Source: a virus
Direction: 5' to 3' (one strand)
Length of the DNA: 54,538 bases
Virus record (IMG/VR): IMGVR_UViG_3300029220_000010
Below the pieces are notes generated by a model. That model saw only the letters and a list, made by a program, of their open reading frames with translations, was not told where the DNA came from and made no database searches. Positions 1 to 54,538 of this stretch are shown piece after piece. Numbering within the stretch: position 1 is the stretch's first letter; each line of letters begins with the position of its first letter. Made by a program: the position numbers and the translations under genes.

Positions 1-362
1 GTGGGGCATCCAGTGCGACAGGCTACAAAGGGGCATCCAGTGCGACAGGCGACTACGGGGCATCCAGTGCGACAGGCAACTGTGGGGCATCCAGTGCGAC
101 AGGCTACAAAGGAAAGTCGGCAGCAGAAAACCAAAATAGCGTAGCGGTCGCTTGGGGACCAGAAGCAATGGCAAAAGGCGTAAAAGGATCCACACTTGTT
201 CTTGCGGAATGGAAACGGATTGATAATGATGCATGGTACTGGAAAGAGGAAACGTGGGATTTTATAGGATCGTTAATGGTTCGTGTGGATGGCGAAAAAG
301 TAAAAGAAAACACATGGTACACATTAAAGAACGGTGAACTTGTGGAGGTAGAAGATGAATAA
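1..362 (+). CDS. 3' part of the junction-spanning repeat protein (continuation of CDS 53897-54538)
   Basis: Frame 3 is open from the window edge. GASSATG(YK/DY/NC) units run to nt 110, followed by ...AVAWGPEAMAKGVKGSTLVLAEW...LVEVEDE and TAA at 360-362. Confidence 0.8.
   Translation, partial: GASSATGYKGASSATGDYGASSATGNCGASSATGYKGKSAAENQNSVAVAWGPEAMAKGVKGSTLVLAEWKRIDNDAWYWKEETWDFIGSLMVRVDGEKVKENTWYTLKNGELVEVEDE
3..110 (+). repeat. 27-bp in-frame tandem repeat, 4 units (same array as 54245-54538)
   Basis: GGGGCATCCAGTGCGACAGGC is invariant in every unit; only the last 6 nt of each unit vary. Confidence 0.95.
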
Positions 363-2760: not shown

Positions 2761-4407
2761 GAGTGAAATTTATAGATTGGTTCGCTGGAATAGGTGGTTT
2801 CCGCAGAGGAATGGAACTTGCCGGACATGAATGTGTTGGGTTTTGCGAATTTGATAAATTCGCAACTGCAAGTTACATATCCATGCATCTTCTGACGGAG
2901 GAACAGAGGAAGACGTTGGAAGAATTACCACTGAAAAAGCGACAAAAGGAGATTTTGAAAGATGAATACAGAAATGGAGAATGGTATGCAAATGACATTA
3001 GAAGAGTTTGTGCCGATGACATACCAAAAGCAGACTGTTGGTGCTTCGGATTCCCTTGCCAAGATATCTCAGTTGCCGGAAAACAACTTGGATTTCAAGG
3101 AAACCGTTCAAGCTTGTTTTTCAGAGTTATGTACCTTATCGGACAGCTCAAAGAAGAAGATAAACCCGCTTACCTTTTCATTGAGAACGTTAAGAATTTG
3201 CTTAGTGTTAATGGAGGATGGGATTTCGCCCGATTGCTCATTGAAATGGAGCAGGGGGGGGTATGATGCAGAATGGCAGGTGCTCAACTCCAAAGATTTC
3301 GGAGTGCCACAGAACAGAGAAAGGTGTTTCATTATCGGACATCTTAGAGGGAGAGGTTCTGCAAAAGTATTTCCTGTCAAAAGAGCAGACGGAGAAAATA
3401 GTGTTTCGTTAAATTTGTTCGGCTGTCTGAACGGGAGAAATTCACAGAGGGATAGAGTATATAGCAGCGAAGGATTAGCTCCGACTATAAGTACAAAACC
3501 TGGGGGGAATACAGAGCCAAAATATATTGGACAAGATGGAAAAGCGAGAGAGTATGAAGGAATATGTCCAACACTGACAAGCAGAGATTACAAAGAACCT
3601 AGAAGTGTTGGTGTTGTGTGCAATGTTAATCCATCAGGTAAAGGGATGAACGGAAATGTATACGATTCAAACGGTGTGAGTCCGAGCCTAACAACAAATA
3701 AAGGGGAGGGGAATAAGATCGCAATTCCTGTTCTTGCTCCTGATCGTGCTGAAAAAAGACAGAATGGACGGAGATTCAAAGAAGATGGTGAGCCGATGTT
3801 TACACTTACTGGACAGGATAGACATGGAGTAGGAATAGAGCCGCTCGGAGTGCTACGGAATGTTCGTAGTGATTACGGAAAAGAAATCCGCAAAGATTAT
3901 GATGCTGGAAACATCAAAATCTCCAGACATGAATTCCTCGAAAGTAAAGTCAGAGATGATGGAGTAGTGAACACATTATCAACAGTGCAAAAAGATAACC
4001 AGCGTGCAGTTAAGGTAGCCGAAGCAACAAAACAGGGTTATTCAGAGTGCAGAGTAGGTGTCGATAGCGTAAATTTATCTGTTCCGGGGAGCAAAACCAG
4101 AAGAGGAAGAGTAGGACATGACCTTGCGAATACGCTTGATACCAGTTGCAATCAAGGAATTTTTGTACAGGTATCCGAAGAACTGACTGTATATGCTGTC
4201 TGGTATGAAAAATATCAGTGCTACATAGCGATTCGAAGACTAACACCAAAAGAATGTTTCCGGCTACAAGGTTGGACGGACGATTATTTTGAAAAAGCAC
4301 AGTTCGTAAATTCGGATAGCCAGTTATACAAGCAAGCCGGAAATGGAGTCACTGTGAATGTGATTGAAGCAATTGCAGAAAAATTAAGATTTGCGTTAAA
4401 AAGGTGA
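2748..4407 (+). pseudogene. DNA (cytosine-5) methyltransferase split by a frameshift in a G8 tract, with a very long target-recognition region
   Basis: N-part has FAGIGG (motif I), GFPCQD (IV) and ENVKNL (VI). C-part, in the +1 frame from 3262, has GVPQNRERCFIIG (VIII), RRLTPKECFRLQGW (IX) and QAGNGVTVNV (X). The two frames join if the G8 tract were G7. Confidence 0.9.
3254..3261 (+). repeat. Homopolymeric G8 tract at the methyltransferase frameshift site
   Basis: Read directly: gagcaGGGGGGGGtatgatgca. Confidence 0.95.
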
Positions 4408-8081: not shown

Positions 8082-8489
8082 ATGGATAATACATATGCAC
8101 CAACGGAAAATAAAGAACAGGAAAAGATAAAGGTAGAGAGCATTGATACCATAGTGACTATGCACGGAGACAAGCCATATTACGAAAATAAGTATAGAGA
8201 AGTGGGTGATAACTACTATCACATTGGATATAGCTCTTATCGTTTGGACGTTGCTCTTGAATATAGAGAAAAATATTTTGAATTAGTAGAAAGAGAAAGC
8301 GACTGGATTCCATGTAATGAAAGAAAGCCAAAAGGTACCGTACTTTGTTGCGATGATAGAGGAAATATGTTAGTTGGACTTCTGTGTAAAGACGAAGCTG
8401 GATATATGGCATATGGCGATGATGGACAAGAAATGTATAACTGTGTTGCATGGATGCCGTTGCCGGAACCGTACAGAGAGGGAGAATGA
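8082..8489 (+). CDS. DUF551-like phage protein
   Basis: C-terminal DWIPCNERKPKG...VAWMPLPEPY resembles the DUF551 signature. Confidence 0.5.
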   Translation: MDNTYAPTENKEQEKIKVESIDTIVTMHGDKPYYENKYREVGDNYYHIGYSSYRLDVALEYREKYFELVERESDWIPCNERKPKGTVLCCDDRGNMLVGLLCKDEAGYMAYGDDGQEMYNCVAWMPLPEPYREGE

Positions 8490-8490
8490 T

Positions 8491-8901
8491 ATGAGCAGAC
8501 TAATTGATGCGGATGCAGAAATCGCAAGAATTGAAGAAGAGATAATGAAATTGACAAAAGCAATAGTGAGATGGCAAGCGAGAAAATTTGAAGAAAGCAC
8601 ACTATATGATATAGATGCAAAAATTCAAGAATTACAAAATAACAGAACTAACTGTAGAGTTGAAATCCGAACATTAAGGAATTACAAAACAGCATTTGAT
8701 GTGGAGAAAGTTGTAAAAGAACTTGAAGATTTAAAGATGCGCTACTATTTCACAATAGCAAATACAGGTGATGCGGATAAAGATTGTGCTTATCTTAATA
8801 CTGCAAATGCTATTGACAGAGCCATTGAAATTGTTAAACGAGGTGGAAGAAATGAAAAACAAAGAGAAGTATGCAAAAGAGATTATGGAGGTTGCTTGTA
8901 G
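8491..8901 (+). CDS. Hypothetical coiled-coil protein
   Basis: GAGGGAG SD then ATG 8491 (MSRLIDADAEIARIEEE...). Confidence 0.55.
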   Translation: MSRLIDADAEIARIEEEIMKLTKAIVRWQARKFEESTLYDIDAKIQELQNNRTNCRVEIRTLRNYKTAFDVEKVVKELEDLKMRYYFTIANTGDADKDCAYLNTANAIDRAIEIVKRGGRNEKQREVCKRDYGGCL

Positions 8902-9955: not shown

Positions 9956-9994
9956 AGAATTGACCTTGATAGAATCTTGGTCAATTCTTTTTTT
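9956..9994 (+). terminator. Rho-independent terminator
   Basis: Perfect 10-bp stem, AGAATTGACC (9956-9965) with GGTCAATTCT (9979-9988), then a T-run. Confidence 0.65.
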
Positions 9995-10013
9995 AATTGA
10001 AAGGAGAATTGAC

Positions 10014-11369
10014 ATGAAAAAATTAAATGTAGGTTATATGAGAGTGTCTACAGAAGCACAGACCGAAAAGTATGGTCTTGATGTCCAAGAAGACAAAATA
10101 AATGAACTTGCCAAGAAAAGGGGCGTAAAGATAGCCAGATGGTATGTGGACGGGGGATATTCAGGGAGCAATATCCAAAGGCCGAACATACAGAAACTTC
10201 TGGAGGATGCAGAAGCCGGAGAAATACAGGCAGTATACATCTATAAGCTTGACAGAATGAGCCGTGATGTTGTAGATACTCTTACGCTTGTGAGTAAGCT
10301 TTTACCAAAATACAATGTAGAGGTAGTATCGGCTACAGAGGATCTGCGGAATGAGACACCGATGGATCGTGTAATGCTGGGCGTTAATGCGGTCATGGGG
10401 CAGTATGAGCGTGAGGTTATCTATATGCGTACAAGAGCCGGTATGGTGGAACGTGTAAAGCGTGGACTGTGGATGGGTGGCGGTACGATACCTTACGGAT
10501 ATAGGTACGACAGGAACGATGGGATATTACATATCATCCCAGAAGAATCGGAAAAGGTAAAAGCTATCTTTCAAATGTTCCGAGACGGATATTCGTGTGA
10601 TAGGATTCAAAAAATTCTTGGGATGCATTCGGAGAAACTTGTATCGAATATTATTCGGAGAATAACTTATGTAGGTAAGATACAGTACAAAGGAAGAGTA
10701 TACCAAGGTTTACACGAACCGATCATAGACGAAAAACTATTTTACGAAGTACAGGAAGAGATAAAAAAGAGGTCTACAAATGCTTACGTAAGCAACAAGC
10801 ATATGCTTACCGGGTTGTGCTACTGCGGAAAATGCGGTACTAAAATGCGGATGCAGAAGTGGGGAAAGTACACCAAGATAGTATGTTACTCACAGTACAA
10901 GGAAAAAGAACATATATCTAAGACAGGGAATCCTTGCAAGAATAAAAAGGTGCGGGCAGATGTGGTGGAAAAAGAAGTAGAGGACTGTTTTAAACGATTC
11001 ATCGTTAATGTCGAAGAAAAAGAGAATGAATCCGAGAGCACCAAGAAGATGATAGAGCGAGAGATATCACTCAGCGAATCAAAGCTGAAACGCCTATACA
11101 CATTGTATGCAATCGGTAACTCCGGTACAGATACGCTTTTTGGTGTTATTCAGGCAGAAGAAAAAACACTGAAAAATCTACAGGAAGAACTAAAGGCAGA
11201 AGATATCAAGGAGAAAGCCGGACGTGGAGAAAAGATAGAGAAAATAAAAGAGATGTCCAACGTGTGGGATACACTGACGGATTCCGAGAAAAACAAGGTG
11301 CTAAAAGAGTGTGTTGAAAAGGTTGTTATCGCGGGAGATGACATAGACATACATTTTAGCATATATTAA
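10014..11369 (+). CDS. Large serine recombinase (phage integrase)
   Basis: AAGGAG SD. Resolvase-type N-terminus VGYMRVSTEAQ...YKLDRMSRD, recombinase domain, zinc ribbon CYCGKCGTKM, C-terminal coiled coil. Confidence 0.9.
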   Translation: MKKLNVGYMRVSTEAQTEKYGLDVQEDKINELAKKRGVKIARWYVDGGYSGSNIQRPNIQKLLEDAEAGEIQAVYIYKLDRMSRDVVDTLTLVSKLLPKYNVEVVSATEDLRNETPMDRVMLGVNAVMGQYEREVIYMRTRAGMVERVKRGLWMGGGTIPYGYRYDRNDGILHIIPEESEKVKAIFQMFRDGYSCDRIQKILGMHSEKLVSNIIRRITYVGKIQYKGRVYQGLHEPIIDEKLFYEVQEEIKKRSTNAYVSNKHMLTGLCYCGKCGTKMRMQKWGKYTKIVCYSQYKEKEHISKTGNPCKNKKVRADVVEKEVEDCFKRFIVNVEEKENESESTKKMIEREISLSESKLKRLYTLYAIGNSGTDTLFGVIQAEEKTLKNLQEELKAEDIKEKAGRGEKIEKIKEMSNVWDTLTDSEKNKVLKECVEKVVIAGDDIDIHFSIY

Positions 11370-11545: not shown

Positions 11546-11615
11546 TTGACTAGTGGACACCACTATGGTATAATAAAGACAGTTAAGAGAGGAACACATT
11601 ATAGGAGGTAAGAAC
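11546..11615 (+). promoter_or_regulatory. Promoter-operator-leader cassette, copy A
   Basis: TTGACT, 17-nt spacer containing the palindrome AGTGGACACCACT, TGgTATAAT, then a conserved leader ending AGGAGGTAAGAACATG. Confidence 0.7.
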
Positions 11616-11876
11616 ATGACAACAGGATATGCAAAAGTAAAAGAATGGGTTATTGATAAAATGCAAAACACCGCTGAAAGATATAACACATATATTGATA
11701 TCTATAGCAGAGACGAAAATAGAATGGTCTCATCAGAGAATGGATATGTTGTCGTAAAAGTTATTGATGTACTGAAAGAAAGTGAAAAGGCAGTAGAAGT
11801 TGTCCTTTCGACTGGTGATGTGGTAGGAAGTTATAAGGGATGGAAAGCATGGATCCCAAAATCAGCAATAGCATAA
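11616..11876 (+). CDS. Hypothetical protein
   Basis: First gene after cassette A; 86 aa. Confidence 0.6.
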   Translation: MTTGYAKVKEWVIDKMQNTAERYNTYIDIYSRDENRMVSSENGYVVVKVIDVLKESEKAVEVVLSTGDVVGSYKGWKAWIPKSAIA

Positions 11877-11891
11877 ATAAGGAGAAAAATA

Positions 11892-12089
11892 ATGGAGAAA
11901 GTGAGCAGAAACGTAATGATAAACAAAGCCGGGGGAACATCGGGCAAGAATACAAAGAACTACCGTATTTCTATTCCGGTAGGAATGATAAAGGCACTGG
12001 GCGTTACGGAAGAGGATAGAAGCGTTGTCCTAGAAGAAAAAGACGGAGTGATAACTATTAAGAAAGAAAAAATGAAAACCATTGGCTAG
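11892..12089 (+). CDS. AbrB/MazE/SpoVT-type DNA-binding protein
   Basis: YRISIPVGMIKALGVTEEDRSVVLEEKDGVITIKK fits the looped-hinge-helix pattern. Its 3' end overlaps the -35 of cassette B. Confidence 0.55.
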   Translation: MEKVSRNVMINKAGGTSGKNTKNYRISIPVGMIKALGVTEEDRSVVLEEKDGVITIKKEKMKTIG

Positions 12090-12153
12090 TGGACCCGCTA
12101 TGATATAATAAAGACAGTTAAAGAAGACAAATAAATTTAAGGAGGAAAAGAAG
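12082..12153 (+). promoter_or_regulatory. Promoter-operator-leader cassette, copy B (degenerate)
   Basis: TTGGCT, 16-nt spacer with AGTGGACCCGCT, TATAAT, then the AAAGACAGTTAAAGAAG leader. Confidence 0.55.
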
Positions 12154-12342
12154 ATGAAAAAATATGAATTTACAGGTACGAACGAATTAACGAAAAAAGC
12201 ATTTACTGTTTACAGTGATAGTAGTTTTACATTTTGGAAGGACGGTGACAGATTTTATTGTTCAGACAATCCGAACAGTGAAAAAGTAGAACTTGGAACC
12301 GTTGCGGACGTGATTGAATTTCTCGAACAATTCGCAGACTAG
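12154..12342 (+). CDS. Hypothetical protein
   Basis: AAGGAGGA SD; 62 aa. Confidence 0.55.
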   Translation: MKKYEFTGTNELTKKAFTVYSDSSFTFWKDGDRFYCSDNPNSEKVELGTVADVIEFLEQFAD

Positions 12343-12521: not shown

Positions 12522-12592
12522 TTGACCAGTGGACACCACTATGCTATAATAAAGACAGTTAAGAGAGGAACACATTATAGGAGGTAAGAACA
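12522..12592 (+). promoter_or_regulatory. Promoter-operator-leader cassette, copy C
   Basis: TTGACC, 17-nt spacer with AGTGGACACCACT, TATAAT. Nearly identical to copy A through to the ATG. Confidence 0.7.
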
Positions 12593-12973
12593 ATGATGAA
12601 CGTAGAAAAAATCTTAAAAACAATTAAGGAAAATGATTATAGCGTGGTAGCAATTCGCCATTGTTGTCCGGATGAAGAATATAAAATTGGTGACATTTGC
12701 AGAAACAGCTTTGAGTGGAATGAAGAATATGAGTGTAGCTCATATGACACAGAAGAACCAGAGGAAATGGACGGCGTATGTGGATACGCAATGTTTGAAC
12801 TGATTGACACTGATGATGCAGAAGAAGCAAAAGAGATAATCGAAAGAGCTATTGAAGAATCATCTATCTACGATGGAAACAACATTGTAATAATCGGTGG
12901 GGACTCTTACTCTTATGGGAATGACGAAAACGAAGTAATTGTTGAAGAAGCAGAAGTAATTGAAATTGCATAA
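12593..12973 (+). CDS. Highly acidic small protein
   Basis: 126 aa rich in D/E (YDTEEPEEMD, DTDDAEEAKE, NDENEVIVEEAEVIE); first gene after cassette C. Confidence 0.6.
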   Translation: MMNVEKILKTIKENDYSVVAIRHCCPDEEYKIGDICRNSFEWNEEYECSSYDTEEPEEMDGVCGYAMFELIDTDDAEEAKEIIERAIEESSIYDGNNIVIIGGDSYSYGNDENEVIVEEAEVIEIA

Positions 12974-12983
12974 AGGGGAAAAA

Positions 12984-13835
12984 ATGAGCGAATGGAACGA
13001 AATATTAAAACAATATGAAATACTTGGAGTGGAAAGTGTTATTCCGATTGCACATATCAGAATAAGACCAGATGTCAGAGTTTTGGTAGATGCATATGGA
13101 AATTTCATTGGAGCAACAGCAACGAAGAACGAAAGGTGCTCCATCCCGTGTACGATCAATTCAGAAAGTAGGACATCTGGGATAGCGCCACACCCGATTC
13201 ACGACAATATGTCATATGTATGCGGAGACTATCCACAATATAAAAACCGTCATACAGCATATATGGAGCAGTTGAGGAAATATATAGAAAGCGTAGATGA
13301 CCCGGTAGCGAAGAGCACATATCAATACTTGAGCAAAAGAACTATACGCTATGATATCAAAGCAGTTTCTGAAAAGTTAGATACATCAGAGGAAAAACTT
13401 ATGATAATCTTTTCTACGTTAACCAAGGAAGAAACACATATGCTTTTTGATTCGCGATATAGAGAAAAAGTAGTCTATGCCGGATTAACGGATAGAGGAA
13501 CTATAAGCACACTGTGGAGAGATTATTATATTTCTACACTCGAAAAGAACGGAATTTGCGGGATTACTGGAGAGCCAGATTATATACCAGACAAGTACCC
13601 GAAGGGAATTCGCAATCCAGCAGATCAAGCGAAATTGTTTATCGCAACTCCAAAAAAAATGGATTGGATGCCAACAATAACACCGGGATACATTACGTCT
13701 CAGAAAATTATTCATACATTGCAATTTATGATTTACGAGGGGGATTCTTGGGCATATCAAATTTTAAAAAACCAAGAGAATCTACCGAAAGAGTATAAGA
13801 AATGGGTAAAAGAATATGAAAGAAAAAAGGCATAG
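12984..13835 (+). CDS. Truncated Cas8c/Csd1-like protein (N-terminal half only)
   Basis: 283 aa. The blocks IPCTINSESRTSGIAPHPIHDNMSYVCGDY, ICGITGEPDYIPDKYPKGIRNPADQAKLF and GYITSQKIIHTLQFMI resemble conserved Cas8c blocks as I recall them. Confidence 0.5.
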   Translation: MSEWNEILKQYEILGVESVIPIAHIRIRPDVRVLVDAYGNFIGATATKNERCSIPCTINSESRTSGIAPHPIHDNMSYVCGDYPQYKNRHTAYMEQLRKYIESVDDPVAKSTYQYLSKRTIRYDIKAVSEKLDTSEEKLMIIFSTLTKEETHMLFDSRYREKVVYAGLTDRGTISTLWRDYYISTLEKNGICGITGEPDYIPDKYPKGIRNPADQAKLFIATPKKMDWMPTITPGYITSQKIIHTLQFMIYEGDSWAYQILKNQENLPKEYKKWVKEYERKKA

Positions 13836-14047
13836 CTAAAAGCTATACCTAGATTCTGAATTTCTTCTTAAATTCTAACATCTTTCAACTCAACGTTCCA
13901 CCATTGACTGGAACGACACTCACGAAAATCATGGAACCGTGAGAAACAACAAAGATTGCTGATAGATATATATTAATCTTAAAAAGATAAAAAGTCAATA
14001 TGGAAAAAATAAAAGAGACAAAGAAATAAACATAGAACAACCAAACA

Positions 14048-20314: not shown

Positions 20315-20369
20315 GGGGACACGTCAATCGGAAAGATAAATGATAATGTCTGTAAAGGAGGACTAAAAA

Positions 20370-20663
20370 ATGGAACAGATTATAAATTATGTAAAACCAG
20401 AATTGGTGGTAGTATCTATTGCGCTGTATTTTATCGGTATGTGGTTAAAGAATTCACAGAGGATTAAGGATAAGGACATCCCGCTGATTCTTGGCAGTAT
20501 TGGAATTACCATTTGCGGAATGTATGTGATTGCAACTTGTGATCTGTCTGGAATGCAGAATATTTTTATGGCACTGTTTACGGCTATCGTACAGGGAATT
20601 CTTGTAGCCGGACTTAGTACATACGTCAATCAGATTATTAAGCAGATTGGAAAGGATGAATAA
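20370..20663 (+). CDS. Holin-like protein, three TM segments
   Basis: INYVKPELVVVSIALYFIGMWLKNSQRIKDKDIPLILG resembles Hol44/phage_holin_5-type holins; AAGGAGGA SD. Confidence 0.6.
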   Translation: MEQIINYVKPELVVVSIALYFIGMWLKNSQRIKDKDIPLILGSIGITICGMYVIATCDLSGMQNIFMALFTAIVQGILVAGLSTYVNQIIKQIGKDE

Positions 20664-20665
20664 GC

Positions 20666-20749
20666 ATGGCAACAAGTACTATTAATATTATTGTTATTTG
20701 CGTTTTTCTGCTTCTGATAACGAAGATTCCAAACAGAAAGGATAAATAA
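20666..20749 (+). CDS. Micro-ORF encoding a 27-aa hydrophobic peptide
   Basis: MATSTINIIVICVFLLLITKIPNRKDK; its stop overlaps the next ATG (TAATG). Confidence 0.35.
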   Translation: MATSTINIIVICVFLLLITKIPNRKDK

Positions 20750-21981
20750 TGCTTACACCGGAATATCTCTTTCGTGTGACCGAGGGGGCTGAAAAGATAT
20801 CTTCTGATATGCATCGGAACATCATGGACATGATCGTTGAGCGCATAATGGTACGTATAGGACGTGGGGAAGATTATCTCCTTACGGCTACAGACAGGTG
20901 GCAGATACAGGTGTTACAGGAATCCGGCTACTTATTGGAAGACATACAAAAAGAGATTGCTGACAAAACGAAGAAGCAAGAGCGAGAACTTAAAAGCGCA
21001 TTTGAAGAAGCCGGAATAAAAGCTATCGAGAGAGACGATGCGATATATAGGGCGGTAGGACTATCACCTACGCCCTTATTGCAATCTCCGGCATTGCTCA
21101 GGATACTGGAAAGAGATTATAACGCTACGTGTGGAGAATGGAGAAACCTTACACGAACAACGGCAGATGAAGCACAGAAGTTGTTTCTGAAAGAGGTCGA
21201 CACCGCTTACCGCATGGCATCAAGCGGTGCTGTATCATATACACAAGCCGTCAGAAATGCTGTTGACAGGATGATAAAGCAAGGTGTTAAAGTGTCGTAT
21301 CCGTCCGGTAGAGAAATGAGCATAGAATCAGCCACAATGATGACTGTCCGCACAGGGATAAGCCAGTGCGCCGGAGCAATCGCACTAAAACGAATGGAAG
21401 AATTAGAATGGGATACCATCTTAGTATCTGCACATGTGGGCGCACGAATTGGTGATGGTGGCAACAATCCAACGAACCACTTTTGGTGGCAAGGAAAATT
21501 CTATTCCCGGACAGGCAAAGACAAAAGATTTTCGGACTTCCGAACATCAACAGGATACGGAACGGTGACAGGGTTGTGTGGCGTGAACTGTCGACACTCT
21601 TTCGGATCCGGTGACGGTGAAAACAATCCGTATGCAGATATCAATCTGTCGAGTGAAGAAAATATCAAAGCGGAAGAGCGTGCGAAAAAGCAACGGCTTA
21701 TGGAAAGACGCATTCGCAACAGCAAGAGAGAGATTCAGAATTTGCAGACTGCTATAGATGCAAGCGGAGATGATAAGCTTAAATTCGAATTGCAACAGAT
21801 GTACGACCGAAAATCAGCGGTGCTGAGACGGCAGAACAAGCAATACCGTGAGTTCTGCAAAGATAATAACCTTAAAGAATATTCGGAACGTTTACGGGTA
21901 GCACAGTGGGATAGGTCACAGGCTGTGAGATCAGCAAAAGCAGCACAGAGATATCTTAATGCGAAAGGTGATGTAAAATGA
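20749..21981 (+). CDS. Minor capsid / head morphogenesis protein (SPP1 gp7-like)
   Basis: N-terminus MLTPEYLFRVTEGAEKISSDMHRNIMDMIVERI and ...GLCGVNCRHSF are typical of phage minor capsid protein 2 / Mu F-like families. Confidence 0.75.
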   Translation: MLTPEYLFRVTEGAEKISSDMHRNIMDMIVERIMVRIGRGEDYLLTATDRWQIQVLQESGYLLEDIQKEIADKTKKQERELKSAFEEAGIKAIERDDAIYRAVGLSPTPLLQSPALLRILERDYNATCGEWRNLTRTTADEAQKLFLKEVDTAYRMASSGAVSYTQAVRNAVDRMIKQGVKVSYPSGREMSIESATMMTVRTGISQCAGAIALKRMEELEWDTILVSAHVGARIGDGGNNPTNHFWWQGKFYSRTGKDKRFSDFRTSTGYGTVTGLCGVNCRHSFGSGDGENNPYADINLSSEENIKAEERAKKQRLMERRIRNSKREIQNLQTAIDASGDDKLKFELQQMYDRKSAVLRRQNKQYREFCKDNNLKEYSERLRVAQWDRSQAVRSAKAAQRYLNAKGDVK

Positions 21982-28193: not shown

Positions 28194-28280
28194 CGGGATA
28201 TAGTTCAATGGTAGAACAAAAGTCACAATCATCTCTTTAAAAAAAGACTTATGTCCACGGTTCGATTCCGTGTATCCCGA
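28194..28280 (+). tRNA. tRNA-like gene with canonical acceptor, D and T arms but a 21-nt anticodon loop
   Basis: Acceptor CGGGATA/TATCCCG; D arm GTTC-AATGGTA-GAAC; T arm CACGG-TTCGATT-CCGTG; anticodon stem AAGTC/GACTT encloses ACAATCATCTCTTTAAAAAAA. Confidence 0.5.
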
Positions 28281-53922: not shown

Positions 53923-54538
53923 AGGATTCAACAAAGGCATGACTTGCAGAGATTTCCAATATGAAGAGGGGAAAGAATACGAAGAAGAAAGAGCCGAAGC
54001 GTGCAACTGTGGATTTCATGCATGCGAGCATCCGTTAGATTGCCTTGGATATTATGATCCGGCACACAGTGTATATCATGAAGTCGAACAGAGTGGAGAG
54101 ATATCGAAAAGATCTGATGATACGAAAGTAGCATCTACGAAGATTAAGATCGGGGCAAGAGTGAACATTGCCGGATTGGTACAGGCTGCTATCGAATATA
54201 CGAAAGAAAGAGTTAAGCCAGAAGCAGAAGCTAATGAGGACTACGGGGCATCCAGTGCGACAGGCTACAAAGGGGCATCCAGTGCGACAGGCGACTGTGG
54301 GGCATCCAGTGCGACAGGCGACTGTGGGGCATCCAGTGCGACAGGCGACTACGGGGCATCCAGTGCGACAGGCAACTGTGGGGCATCCAGTGCGACAGGC
54401 AACTGTGGGGCATCCAGTGCGACAGGCGACTGTGGGGCATCCAGTGCGACAGGCTACAAAGGGGCATCCAGTGCGACAGGCAACTGTGGGGCATCCAGTG
54501 CGACAGGCAACTGTGGGGCATCCAGTGCGACAGGCTAC
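53897..54538 (+). CDS. 5' part of the junction-spanning repeat protein (DUF7666-like N-terminal domain plus GASSATGxx repeats)
   Basis: AGGAGGA SD then GTG 53897. IKAYKGFNKGMTCRDFQYEEGKEYEE...CGFHACEHPLDCLGYY. The frame is open to the window end. Confidence 0.8.
   Translation, partial: MGEVIKAYKGFNKGMTCRDFQYEEGKEYEEERAEACNCGFHACEHPLDCLGYYDPAHSVYHEVEQSGEISKRSDDTKVASTKIKIGARVNIAGLVQAAIEYTKERVKPEAEANEDYGASSATGYKGASSATGDCGASSATGDCGASSATGDYGASSATGNCGASSATGNCGASSATGDCGASSATGYKGASSATGNCGASSATGNCGASSATGY
54245..54538 (+). repeat. 27-bp in-frame tandem repeat, about 11 units at the window end
   Basis: Units GASSATG + YK/DC/DC/DY/NC/NC/DC/YK/NC/NC/Y..., with 21 of 27 nt invariant. Confidence 0.95.

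Follow-up and report, generated by a model that had tools for sequence, protein, structure and literature searches.

The virus record IMGVR_UViG_3300029220_000010 of the IMG/VR database is a stretch of 54,538 nucleotides, referred to here in its full length as the window. At positions 12984–13835 it carries a gene for a 283-residue protein, named Cas8cN in this study, which we found to be truly homologous to the N-terminal part (~290 residues) of Cas8c/Csd1, the large subunit of the type I-C Cascade in CRISPR-Cas systems. An earlier reading of the letters, made without database searches (the sequence-only reading), had proposed a C-terminally truncated Cas8c-like protein that could act as a decoy against type I-C systems, and the coordinates it gave for the open reading frame (ORF) were correct. 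The gene has an AGGGGA motif 7 nt upstream of its ATG, and the gene before it, for a very acidic protein, ends 10 nt before this ATG. The features of this unit are, in order along the window:

12522–12550, plus strand: promoter P2, TTGACC-17 nt-TATAAT with a TG extended -10 element; drives the acidic partner and Cas8cN
12528–12540: 13-nt palindrome AGTGGACACCACT, candidate operator in the P2 spacer
12593–12973, plus strand: gene for the 126-residue very acidic partner (isoelectric point, pI, 4.05; net charge -28), co-transcribed upstream of Cas8cN
12984–13835, plus strand: Cas8cN gene, 283-residue protein resembling the N-terminal domain of Cas8c; ATG at 12984, TAG at 13833–13835
13828–13850, no strand assigned: 10-bp terminator-like hairpin that overlaps the stop codon of Cas8cN; its T-run is good when read on the minus strand, weak when read on the plus strand

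The Pfam model PF09709 (Cas_Csd1; curated cutoff 27 bits) matched residues 11–218 of Cas8cN on profile positions 5–213 of 559, with an E-value of 1.5e-19 and 70.6 bits. TIGR01863 also matched (E 8.9e-11, 41 bits), and as this score lies below the equivalog cutoff of 218.65, Cas8cN is a relative of Cas8c and not a Cas8c equivalog. A partial match at the N-terminus to these models was what the sequence-only reading had named as support, and it was obtained, above the cutoff in the case of PF09709. When a profile of the Cas8cN family was searched against 1.84 billion representative sequences, the top matches were ~30 clusters of short proteins (235–310 residues, E 1e-118 to 1e-41), followed after a gap in score by hundreds of Cas8c proteins of 595–660 residues (E 1e-33 to 1e-24), which in every case aligned to the profile over their first ~290 residues only. 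The suggestion that the protein is truncated C-terminally relative to a Cas8c about twice as long was thereby borne out. The three sequence blocks cited in the sequence-only reading were all present in bona fide full-length Cas8c of 595–640 residues, for example as SRTSGI.PHPLHDK..Y.AGDY, C.ITGE...HPSKIR..DKAKLIS and IGY..SQK.HNALRWLI.

The AlphaFold2 model of Cas8cN had a predicted local distance difference test score (pLDDT) of 77.4 and a predicted template modelling score of 0.75. A Foldseek search of the PDB with this model, the structural check proposed earlier, gave five significant matches, exclusively Cas8c chains of type I-C Cascade (8GAF_G, 8G9U_H, 8G9T_K, 8DFS_I and 8DEJ_I; E 4e-7 to 3e-4, template modelling score 0.41–0.54); the match ranked sixth was insignificant (E 3.6). 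Single-sequence searches of the PDB sequences, with Cas8cN or with a full-length Cas8c as intermediate, returned nothing, and only profiles succeeded. No match to Cas8cN was found in deposited phage genomes by DNA search and tblastn, and PHROGs holds no family for it. Some homologues are already named 'Cas8c/Csd1' or 'Cas system-associated protein' in databases (NCBI and JGI pipelines).

Four parts have been described in the Cas8c of N. lactamica (Nla): an N-terminal domain (NTD, residues 1–259), a wedge (260–348), an adaptor (349–457) and a Cas11-like C-terminal domain (CTD, 458–582). The NTD bears the loop that interacts with the protospacer adjacent motif (PAM), R69-S70-G71-S72, and the wedge domain the Cas3 'recruit loop' (Hu et al., bioRxiv 10.1101/2023.08.05.552134). 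In D. vulgaris (Dvu) Cas8c the PAM is recognized by the G71-N72-G73 loop together with Q212 (O'Brien et al., bioRxiv 10.1101/2022.06.15.496202). By profile alignment the most conserved motif of the Cas8cN family, SESRTSG.APHPIHDN, fell on Dvu residues 67–82, the PAM loop, and Dvu Q212 fell on a retained Cas8cN loop, R210..D214.A216-K217. The PAM-interaction loop was retained whole in Cas8cN (S60, R63-T64-S65-G66, P69, H70, D74 and Y78), with R63-T64-S65-G66 at the place of the Nla and Dvu loops and with S60, R63, P69, H70, D74 and Y78 identical to the consensus of full-length Cas8c; in the wedge-loop region R210, D214, A216 and K217 were kept. The S.ND..GFTFRGRF motif was lacking, as were the wedge, adaptor and Cas11-like CTD domains, and the tail of the protein from ~250 to 283 was helical and specific to the family.

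Conservation was compared over 72 columns, each of them conserved to 75% or more across 16 full-length Cas8c N-termini. The short family retained 44 of these (39 identical and 5 similar), while 7 were deleted, among them the G-R-F of S.ND..GFTFRGRF, and 21 were changed. Several of the changed columns carry another residue that in the short family is itself invariant: H is replaced by Y205, I by F219, R by Q247 and W by Y100. The retention of the PAM loop, the deletion of GRF and the exchange of invariant residues for other invariant ones together point to a changed function. In sum, Cas8cN is the PAM-recognition domain by itself, in remodelled form.

A word-indexed search collected 48 clusters of the family, of which all but one comprised proteins of 236–330 residues and all but one matched PF09709. 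In a neighbour-joining tree, calculated without bootstrap, the short proteins (235–330 residues) formed one clade apart from full-length Cas8c. Identity within this clade went down to 40%, with the ORF intact and its length stable. Beside it branched a second shortened Cas8c-like type, represented by P0122 (308 residues), P0168 (316 residues) and P0128 (380 residues), in which the NTD is joined to a piece of the middle domain with a GR[MI][ST]V...Y motif. When the window was compared with L012, a prophage copy of 94% identity, the ratio of nonsynonymous to synonymous substitutions (dN/dS) was 0.13 for Cas8cN and 0.03 for the upstream acidic partner. We concluded that the Cas8cN gene is under purifying selection and is functional and maintained.

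Members of the family were present in at least 87 viral contigs of IMG/VR; in 17 contigs, many of ~50–55 kb like the window, the member was at least 88% identical to Cas8cN of the window. A scan of GTDB species representatives gave two loci only, in prophages of Enterocloster aldenensis and E. lavalensis. The L012 copy shows the phage type of the window integrated in the chromosome of a sporulating Firmicute beside ftsZ-spoIIGA-sigE, with the Cas8cN module ~1.5 kb from the prophage edge. At 8191–8535 of this locus a 114-residue gene fragment with a Sigma70_r2 domain only abuts the integrated phage, next to spoIIGA-sigE. The phage may interrupt a sporulation sigma-factor gene in the manner of a skin-type element and may be excised by its large serine recombinase (window 9960–11369). 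The Cas8cN gene often lies just 5' of the terminase genes, as in the window and in L001–L005, L012, L016 and L018.

The solitary state of the cas-derived gene, as first proposed, was upheld for the ORFs tested. The window showed neither a CRISPR array nor a match to an Rfam CRISPR-DR family, type I-C repeat termini did not exceed chance, and the part of its ORFs that was scanned against Pfam contained no further cas match. The other large ORFs scanned were those of a temperate phage: serine recombinase, CI-like repressor, C5 methylase, terminase, portal and GH25 lysin. The C-5 cytosine DNA methylase gene lies at 2962–4407 and a single tRNA at 28194–28280 (Rfam, 53.2 bits). A 27-bp tandem repeat, GGGGCATCCAGTGCGACAGGCAACTGT, occurs at both ends of the window (3–112, 4 copies; 54245–54535, 11 copies), which implies that the contig wraps around, the genome being circular or terminally redundant; this repeat is probably part of a gene interrupted by the ends of the window.

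To survey the surroundings of the gene in relatives, 80 loci from IMG/VR were taken together with flanks of ±3 kb. Many of these loci are near-duplicates and the counts are not independent. Companions were found near Cas8cN as follows:

acidic partner: 38 of 80 loci
XRE-type helix-turn-helix (HTH) protein: 20 of 80 loci
basic multi-zinc-ribbon protein: 16 of 80 loci
65-residue AcrIC5-like protein: 14 of 80 loci
none of these four: 29 of 80 loci

AcrIC5, of which homologues in Firmicutes are known, is a verified broad-spectrum anti-CRISPR (Acr) protein against type I-C (Leon et al., bioRxiv 10.1101/2020.06.15.151498). According to a prediction in the EVADES preprint it binds Cas8c at the PAM site. 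The 65-residue proteins passed the Pfam AcrIC5 model with 37.9–40.2 bits (cutoff 27). In all 14 loci their gene was immediately upstream of Cas8cN on the same strand, and an XRE HTH gene followed Cas8cN in all but one. HTH proteins of the same family were also found fused to Cas8cN, at its N-terminus in P0016 (HTH_3, 29.3 bits, cutoff 23) and at its C-terminus in P0101; in L017 (39.5 bits) and L019 the HTH protein has a gene of its own, which lies downstream and overlaps. The order AcrIC5 homologue/Cas8cN/XRE HTH is the pattern of operons that join an acr gene with an anti-CRISPR-associated (aca) gene.

The basic multi-zinc-ribbon protein (100–215 residues, DZR_2/DUF2116) was encoded downstream of Cas8cN or of the partner in L001–L005, L010, L016, L020, L023 and L026. 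Its net charge was +18 to +27 in three copies measured, the L001 and L010 copies were 48% identical, and it was absent from the window. Precomputed Pfam matches to Tad4 and Tad2-like (anti-Thoeris) proteins were found in L001–L005 (for example L001 2037–2381 and 16816–end) and in L012 at 20318–20852, so that related phage genomes carry several anti-defence genes.

The model of the acidic partner was an alpha/beta fold with a pLDDT of 93. Its fold search gave no significant match in the PDB, to a known Acr or to a DNA mimic, and in BFVD matched only two uncharacterised phage proteins; in PHROGs there was only a weak match to a family of unknown function. With a hidden Markov model the partner was detected directly upstream of Cas8cN in the L001–L005, L006–L009, L010–L011, L012–L015 and L026–L028 types and downstream of it in L017. 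It was absent beside Cas8cN in L016, L018, L019 and many IMG/VR loci, and present without Cas8cN in L020–L025. As each occurs without the other, we rejected the partner as an obligate companion: the two-gene operon described in the sequence-only reading is real in the window, and in relatives the partner is frequent but not obligate. The neighbours of lone partners, of 259 and 275 residues, were tried as divergent Cas8cN or other Cas proteins and gave no family match. In another phage, L021, an orphan Cas5d (Cas5c)-like protein of 234 residues is encoded at 42–746 on the minus strand, ~2 kb from a lone partner (PF09704, 30.9 bits, cutoff 23, residues 8–55 only), a second type I-C Cas-derived gene in this phage group. 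With its confident but novel predicted fold, the partner is a separate candidate anti-defence protein.

Upstream of the Cas8cN unit the window contains further small units. A cassette of ~75 bp comprising promoter, 5' untranslated region (UTR) and ribosome-binding site (RBS) is present three times (11546–11615, 12082–12153 and 12522–12592), at the start of three small transcription units whose proteins are mostly acidic. The promoter is made up of TTGAC[CT], 17 nt and TG.TATAAT, with the palindrome AGTGGACACCACT within the spacer. The promoter and the palindrome seen in the sequence-only reading are real, but there are three copies and not two. In addition to the P2 unit listed above, the following features were found:

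11546–11574, plus strand: promoter P0, near-identical to P2 including 5' UTR and RBS, palindrome at 11552–11564; drives an 86-residue ORF (11616–11876) and the AbrB/MazE-like ORF
11892–12089, plus strand: 65-residue basic SpoVT/AbrB (MazE_antitoxin-type) DNA-binding protein
12082–12109, plus strand: promoter P1, diverged cassette copy with a degenerate operator, AGTGGACCCGCT; drives the 62-residue acidic ORF
12154–12342, plus strand: 62-residue acidic ORF, pI 4.5, no family match; transcribed from P1
12382–12420, plus strand: terminator-like hairpin CAGCACT...AGTGCTG followed by TTTTTT, between the P1 unit and P2; read in the sequence, loop longer than 8 nt

Outside the cassettes no further copy of the palindrome was found in the window, the surroundings of the CI-like repressor included. 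As a candidate for regulating the triplicated promoter, the AbrB-type protein could stand in for an Aca protein, and it is the only DNA-binding candidate near the gene in the window. To our knowledge AbrB-type proteins are not a described Aca family.

Orphan viral cas genes located in anti-defence loci, and Acr proteins derived from Cas proteins, have been described (Katz et al., bioRxiv 10.1101/2023.06.24.545427). Two of the latter, the Cas5 homologue AcrIB3 and AcrIB4, a homologue of the Cas8b CTD, inhibit type I-B systems and are carried on Listeria mobile elements (Katz et al., bioRxiv 10.1101/2023.06.24.545427; reviewed in PMC13131331). By analogy with this established class, and because relatives lie in operons of AcrIC5 homologue, Cas8cN and XRE HTH or are fused to HTH domains, an anti-type-I-C function is our best reading. 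We propose, with a probability of roughly 0.55, that Cas8cN disables the host's CRISPR-Cas of type I-C by subunit mimicry. The link to anti-CRISPR activity is one of genomic association, read from sequences. The locus itself resembles those of anti-defence genes, as had been suggested, with its strong promoter and the candidate operator.

In this proposal the front domain of Cas8c would have been captured once, in ancient time, and retained since under selection in temperate phages of Lachnospiraceae-type Firmicutes. A strong promoter, early or lysogenic and under the control of an operator, would express Cas8cN, which would compete with the authentic Cas8c NTD for its partners at the PAM-proximal foot of Cascade, namely Cas5c, Cas7 and the 5' handle of the CRISPR RNA. 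A complex that contained it would be incapable of DNA unwinding, R-loop locking and Cas3 recruitment, since Cas8cN lacks the wedge with its Cas3 'recruit loop', the adaptor and the Cas11-like CTD. We infer both the inhibition of type I-C and the choice of the competed partner, and by analogy with AcrIB3 and AcrIB4 this version with a defective subunit seems the most likely one. In the sequence-only reading the decoy had been pictured as a dominant-negative large subunit that could occupy Cas5/crRNA or PAM DNA.

Several points weigh against this proposal. In apo Dvu Cascade the Cas8c NTD is flexible or unresolved (O'Brien et al., bioRxiv 10.1101/2022.06.15.496202), in AcrIC8-bound Nla Cascade it is mobile (Hu et al., bioRxiv 10.1101/2023.08.05.552134), and Cas8c is held in Cascade mostly by its middle and C-terminal parts, the belly being nucleated by the CTD. 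With a flexible NTD and the anchoring elsewhere in Cas8c, a free NTD may compete poorly with the tethered native one. Homology also leaves the targeted CRISPR type unfixed, as the Cas-derived AcrVIA2 targets a type other than that of its origin (Katz et al., bioRxiv 10.1101/2023.06.24.545427). The proposal also presumes a type I-C system in the host of this phage. The window has neither an AcrIC5 homologue nor an HTH gene beside Cas8cN, and the association is seen in relatives only; the neighbours in the window are the acidic protein without known fold match and, in the adjoining unit under the same cassette, the AbrB-like gene. Finally, at the 29 of 80 viral loci named above none of the four companion families was found, in a sample with many near-duplicates.

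The mobility of the NTD and its role as a docking site for Cas3 make titration of Cas3 a live alternative, which we nevertheless consider unlikely. Here free Cas8cN, perhaps together with an acidic DNA-mimicking protein, would mimic the Cas3-docking face of R-loop-engaged Cas8c and trap Cas3; this would still be an activity against type I-C. The structure of Nla type I-C Cascade with Cas3 shows the helicase domain of Cas3 in contact with the NTD of Cas8 (Hu et al., bioRxiv 10.1101/2023.08.05.552134). Docking of this domain and of the anchor loop on the NTD takes place only once the R-loop is complete, so that a free NTD, which in Cascade is mobile and not the main anchor, would expose the anchor-loop groove permanently. 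A small acidic protein is the usual companion of the gene (the partner with its charge of -28, or the AcrIC5 homologue), and AcrIF2, AcrIC4, AcrIC9 and, by prediction, AcrIC5 bind in the PAM cleft of the Cas8c NTD. There is also a precedent, as AcrIF3 mimics a Cas8f domain and binds Cas2-3 (Katz et al., bioRxiv 10.1101/2023.06.24.545427). On the other hand, Cas8cN lacks the wedge-domain recruit loop, which is the second half of the Cas3 interface, and the partner is found without Cas8cN as well.

The acidic proteins that regularly lie alongside, together with the acidic Acr proteins known in the Cas8c PAM cleft, suggest that Cas8cN may work in complex with a DNA mimic. It is conceivable, and as unlikely in our view as the trapping of Cas3 by Cas8cN, that the 126-residue partner or the AcrIC5 homologues would act as such a mimic and form with Cas8cN a two-protein decoy resembling a PAM-engaged Cas8c NTD, which would either capture Cas3 by the anchor-loop groove or enter Cascade with its PAM site blocked. 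In the first case it would constitutively present a groove that is otherwise exposed only after full R-loop formation; in both it would be a composite anti-CRISPR of a stolen Cas domain and a DNA mimic.

It is doubtful that the protein has left CRISPR biology altogether, its PAM-binding fold being co-opted for a DNA-binding phage accessory protein or regulator, for example in late-gene or packaging control, with HTH and zinc-ribbon neighbours. The frequent position of the gene directly 5' of the terminase genes would fit such a role, and so would the recurrent HTH fusions and the recurrent basic multi-zinc-ribbon neighbour. The specific and repeated operon with AcrIC5 homologues speaks against it, and the strong sigma70-type promoter with its operator, owned by the gene, and the position at the prophage edge in L012 resemble those of a moron or anti-defence gene and not of a core gene. 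Moreover, Cas8cN is absent from many related phages that retain the partner and the zinc-ribbon gene, which marks it as an accessory gene.

Improbable, too, is a role as a binder of Acr proteins, either as a sponge for the PAM-mimicking Acrs of competing phages, an anti-anti-CRISPR that would protect the lysogen, or as a carrier or buffer for the acidic Acr of the phage itself. The PAM-interaction loop is wholly retained, and the same cleft is the one bound by AcrIF2, AcrIC4, AcrIC9 and, as predicted, AcrIC5; acidic proteins are encoded adjacently, and the prophage-edge site with its own promoter fits expression in lysogens. A sponge in one operon with an Acr would, however, neutralise the Acr of the phage itself, a Cas-fragment sponge for Acr proteins is without precedent, and the family is found on phages and not beside host CRISPR loci.

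That Cas8cN is a decaying captured cas8c fragment or a piece of a phage-borne CRISPR-Cas system, as its shortness relative to Cas8c and the 'Cas8c/Csd1' names given to homologues by annotation pipelines might suggest, is highly improbable and effectively refuted by the gap in profile-search scores, by the single clade, in which the ORF stays intact and keeps its length down to 40% identity, by the purifying selection (dN/dS 0.13) and by the window itself, where no array or repeat was found and no second cas gene among the ORFs tested.

Compared with Cas8c/Csd1 (PDB 8DEJ, 8DFS, 8G9T, 8G9U, 8GAF; PF09709, TIGR01863), Cas8cN shares the NTD fold, the motifs and the wedge-loop region and is without ~55% of the protein: the remaining wedge with the recruit loop, the adaptor, and the Cas11-like CTD with its internal cas11c ORF. 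No cas3-cas5c-cas8c-cas7c operon or array surrounds it and its neighbours are phage genes. Like AcrIB3 and AcrIB4 it derives from a type I Cascade subunit, is borne by phages and prophages outside a cas operon, forms its own clade, occurs in relatives in acr-like loci and is proposed to act by mimicry. AcrIB4, however, corresponds to the last 90 residues (the Cas11-like CTD) of Cas8b and Cas8cN to the opposite end, the ~260-residue NTD of Cas8c, and AcrIB3 is a whole Cas5 whereas Cas8cN is the Cas8c NTD only. The activity of AcrIB3 and AcrIB4 has been shown by experiment, while the Cas8cN family is known from sequences alone. With AcrIF3, which binds Cas2-3 and structurally mimics the helical bundle of Cas8f, it has in common the viral imitation of a part of a type I large subunit; AcrIF3 imitates a C-terminal bundle without detectable sequence homology to Cas8f, in contrast to the clear homology and N-terminal domain of Cas8cN. 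The resemblance to acr-aca operons and to AcrIC5 (PDB 7YHR) lies in the AcrIC5-homologue/Cas8cN/XRE-HTH operons of the relatives, in HTH fusions like those of Acr-Aca proteins and in the candidate operator within the promoter spacer; the window differs in having the AbrB-type protein in place of an HTH.

The novelty implied by the sequence-only reading did not hold up in full, as orphan viral cas8c genes had already been catalogued as candidate Acrs. Table S3 of Katz et al. (bioRxiv 10.1101/2023.06.24.545427), an IMG/VR survey, contains six uncultivated virus genomes (UViGs) that are among the Cas8cN members: 3300029101_000235 (L100), 3300029660_000034 (L108), 3300029729_000184 (L056), 3300029739_000022 (L054), 3300030432_000005 (L101) and 3300045988_008992 (L049). 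Fusicatenibacter, Enterocloster, Blautia_A and Lachnospiraceae are given as their predicted hosts (Katz et al., bioRxiv 10.1101/2023.06.24.545427). The family and the Acr hypothesis were therefore on record, as tblastn matches of 25–29% identity listed without domain, clade or operon analysis. In the literature that could be searched we found no characterised Acr made of a Cas8c fragment, in agreement with the sequence-only reading. New here are the restriction to the NTD, the single remodelled clade, the recurrent AcrIC5/Cas8cN/HTH operon with the HTH fusions, and the acidic companion with a novel fold. We regard Cas8cN as a good and directly testable Acr candidate, not as a surprise.

Type I-C, for which there are few off-switches, is among the commonest CRISPR types and is in development for genome editing by large deletions. 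Should Cas8cN inhibit type I-C, the PAM-recognition domain of a large subunit would for the first time be the source of an Acr, and the idea that Acrs evolve from cas genes would be extended from type I-B to type I-C. The comparison of Cas8cN with real Cas8c also provides a natural mutational map (PAM loop kept, GFTFRGRF deleted, four invariant positions switched), which points to the surfaces of the NTD that bind each partner. For the prophages of human-gut Lachnospiraceae the family would then be a widespread anti-CRISPR marker, relevant to phage-host matching and to microbiome engineering.

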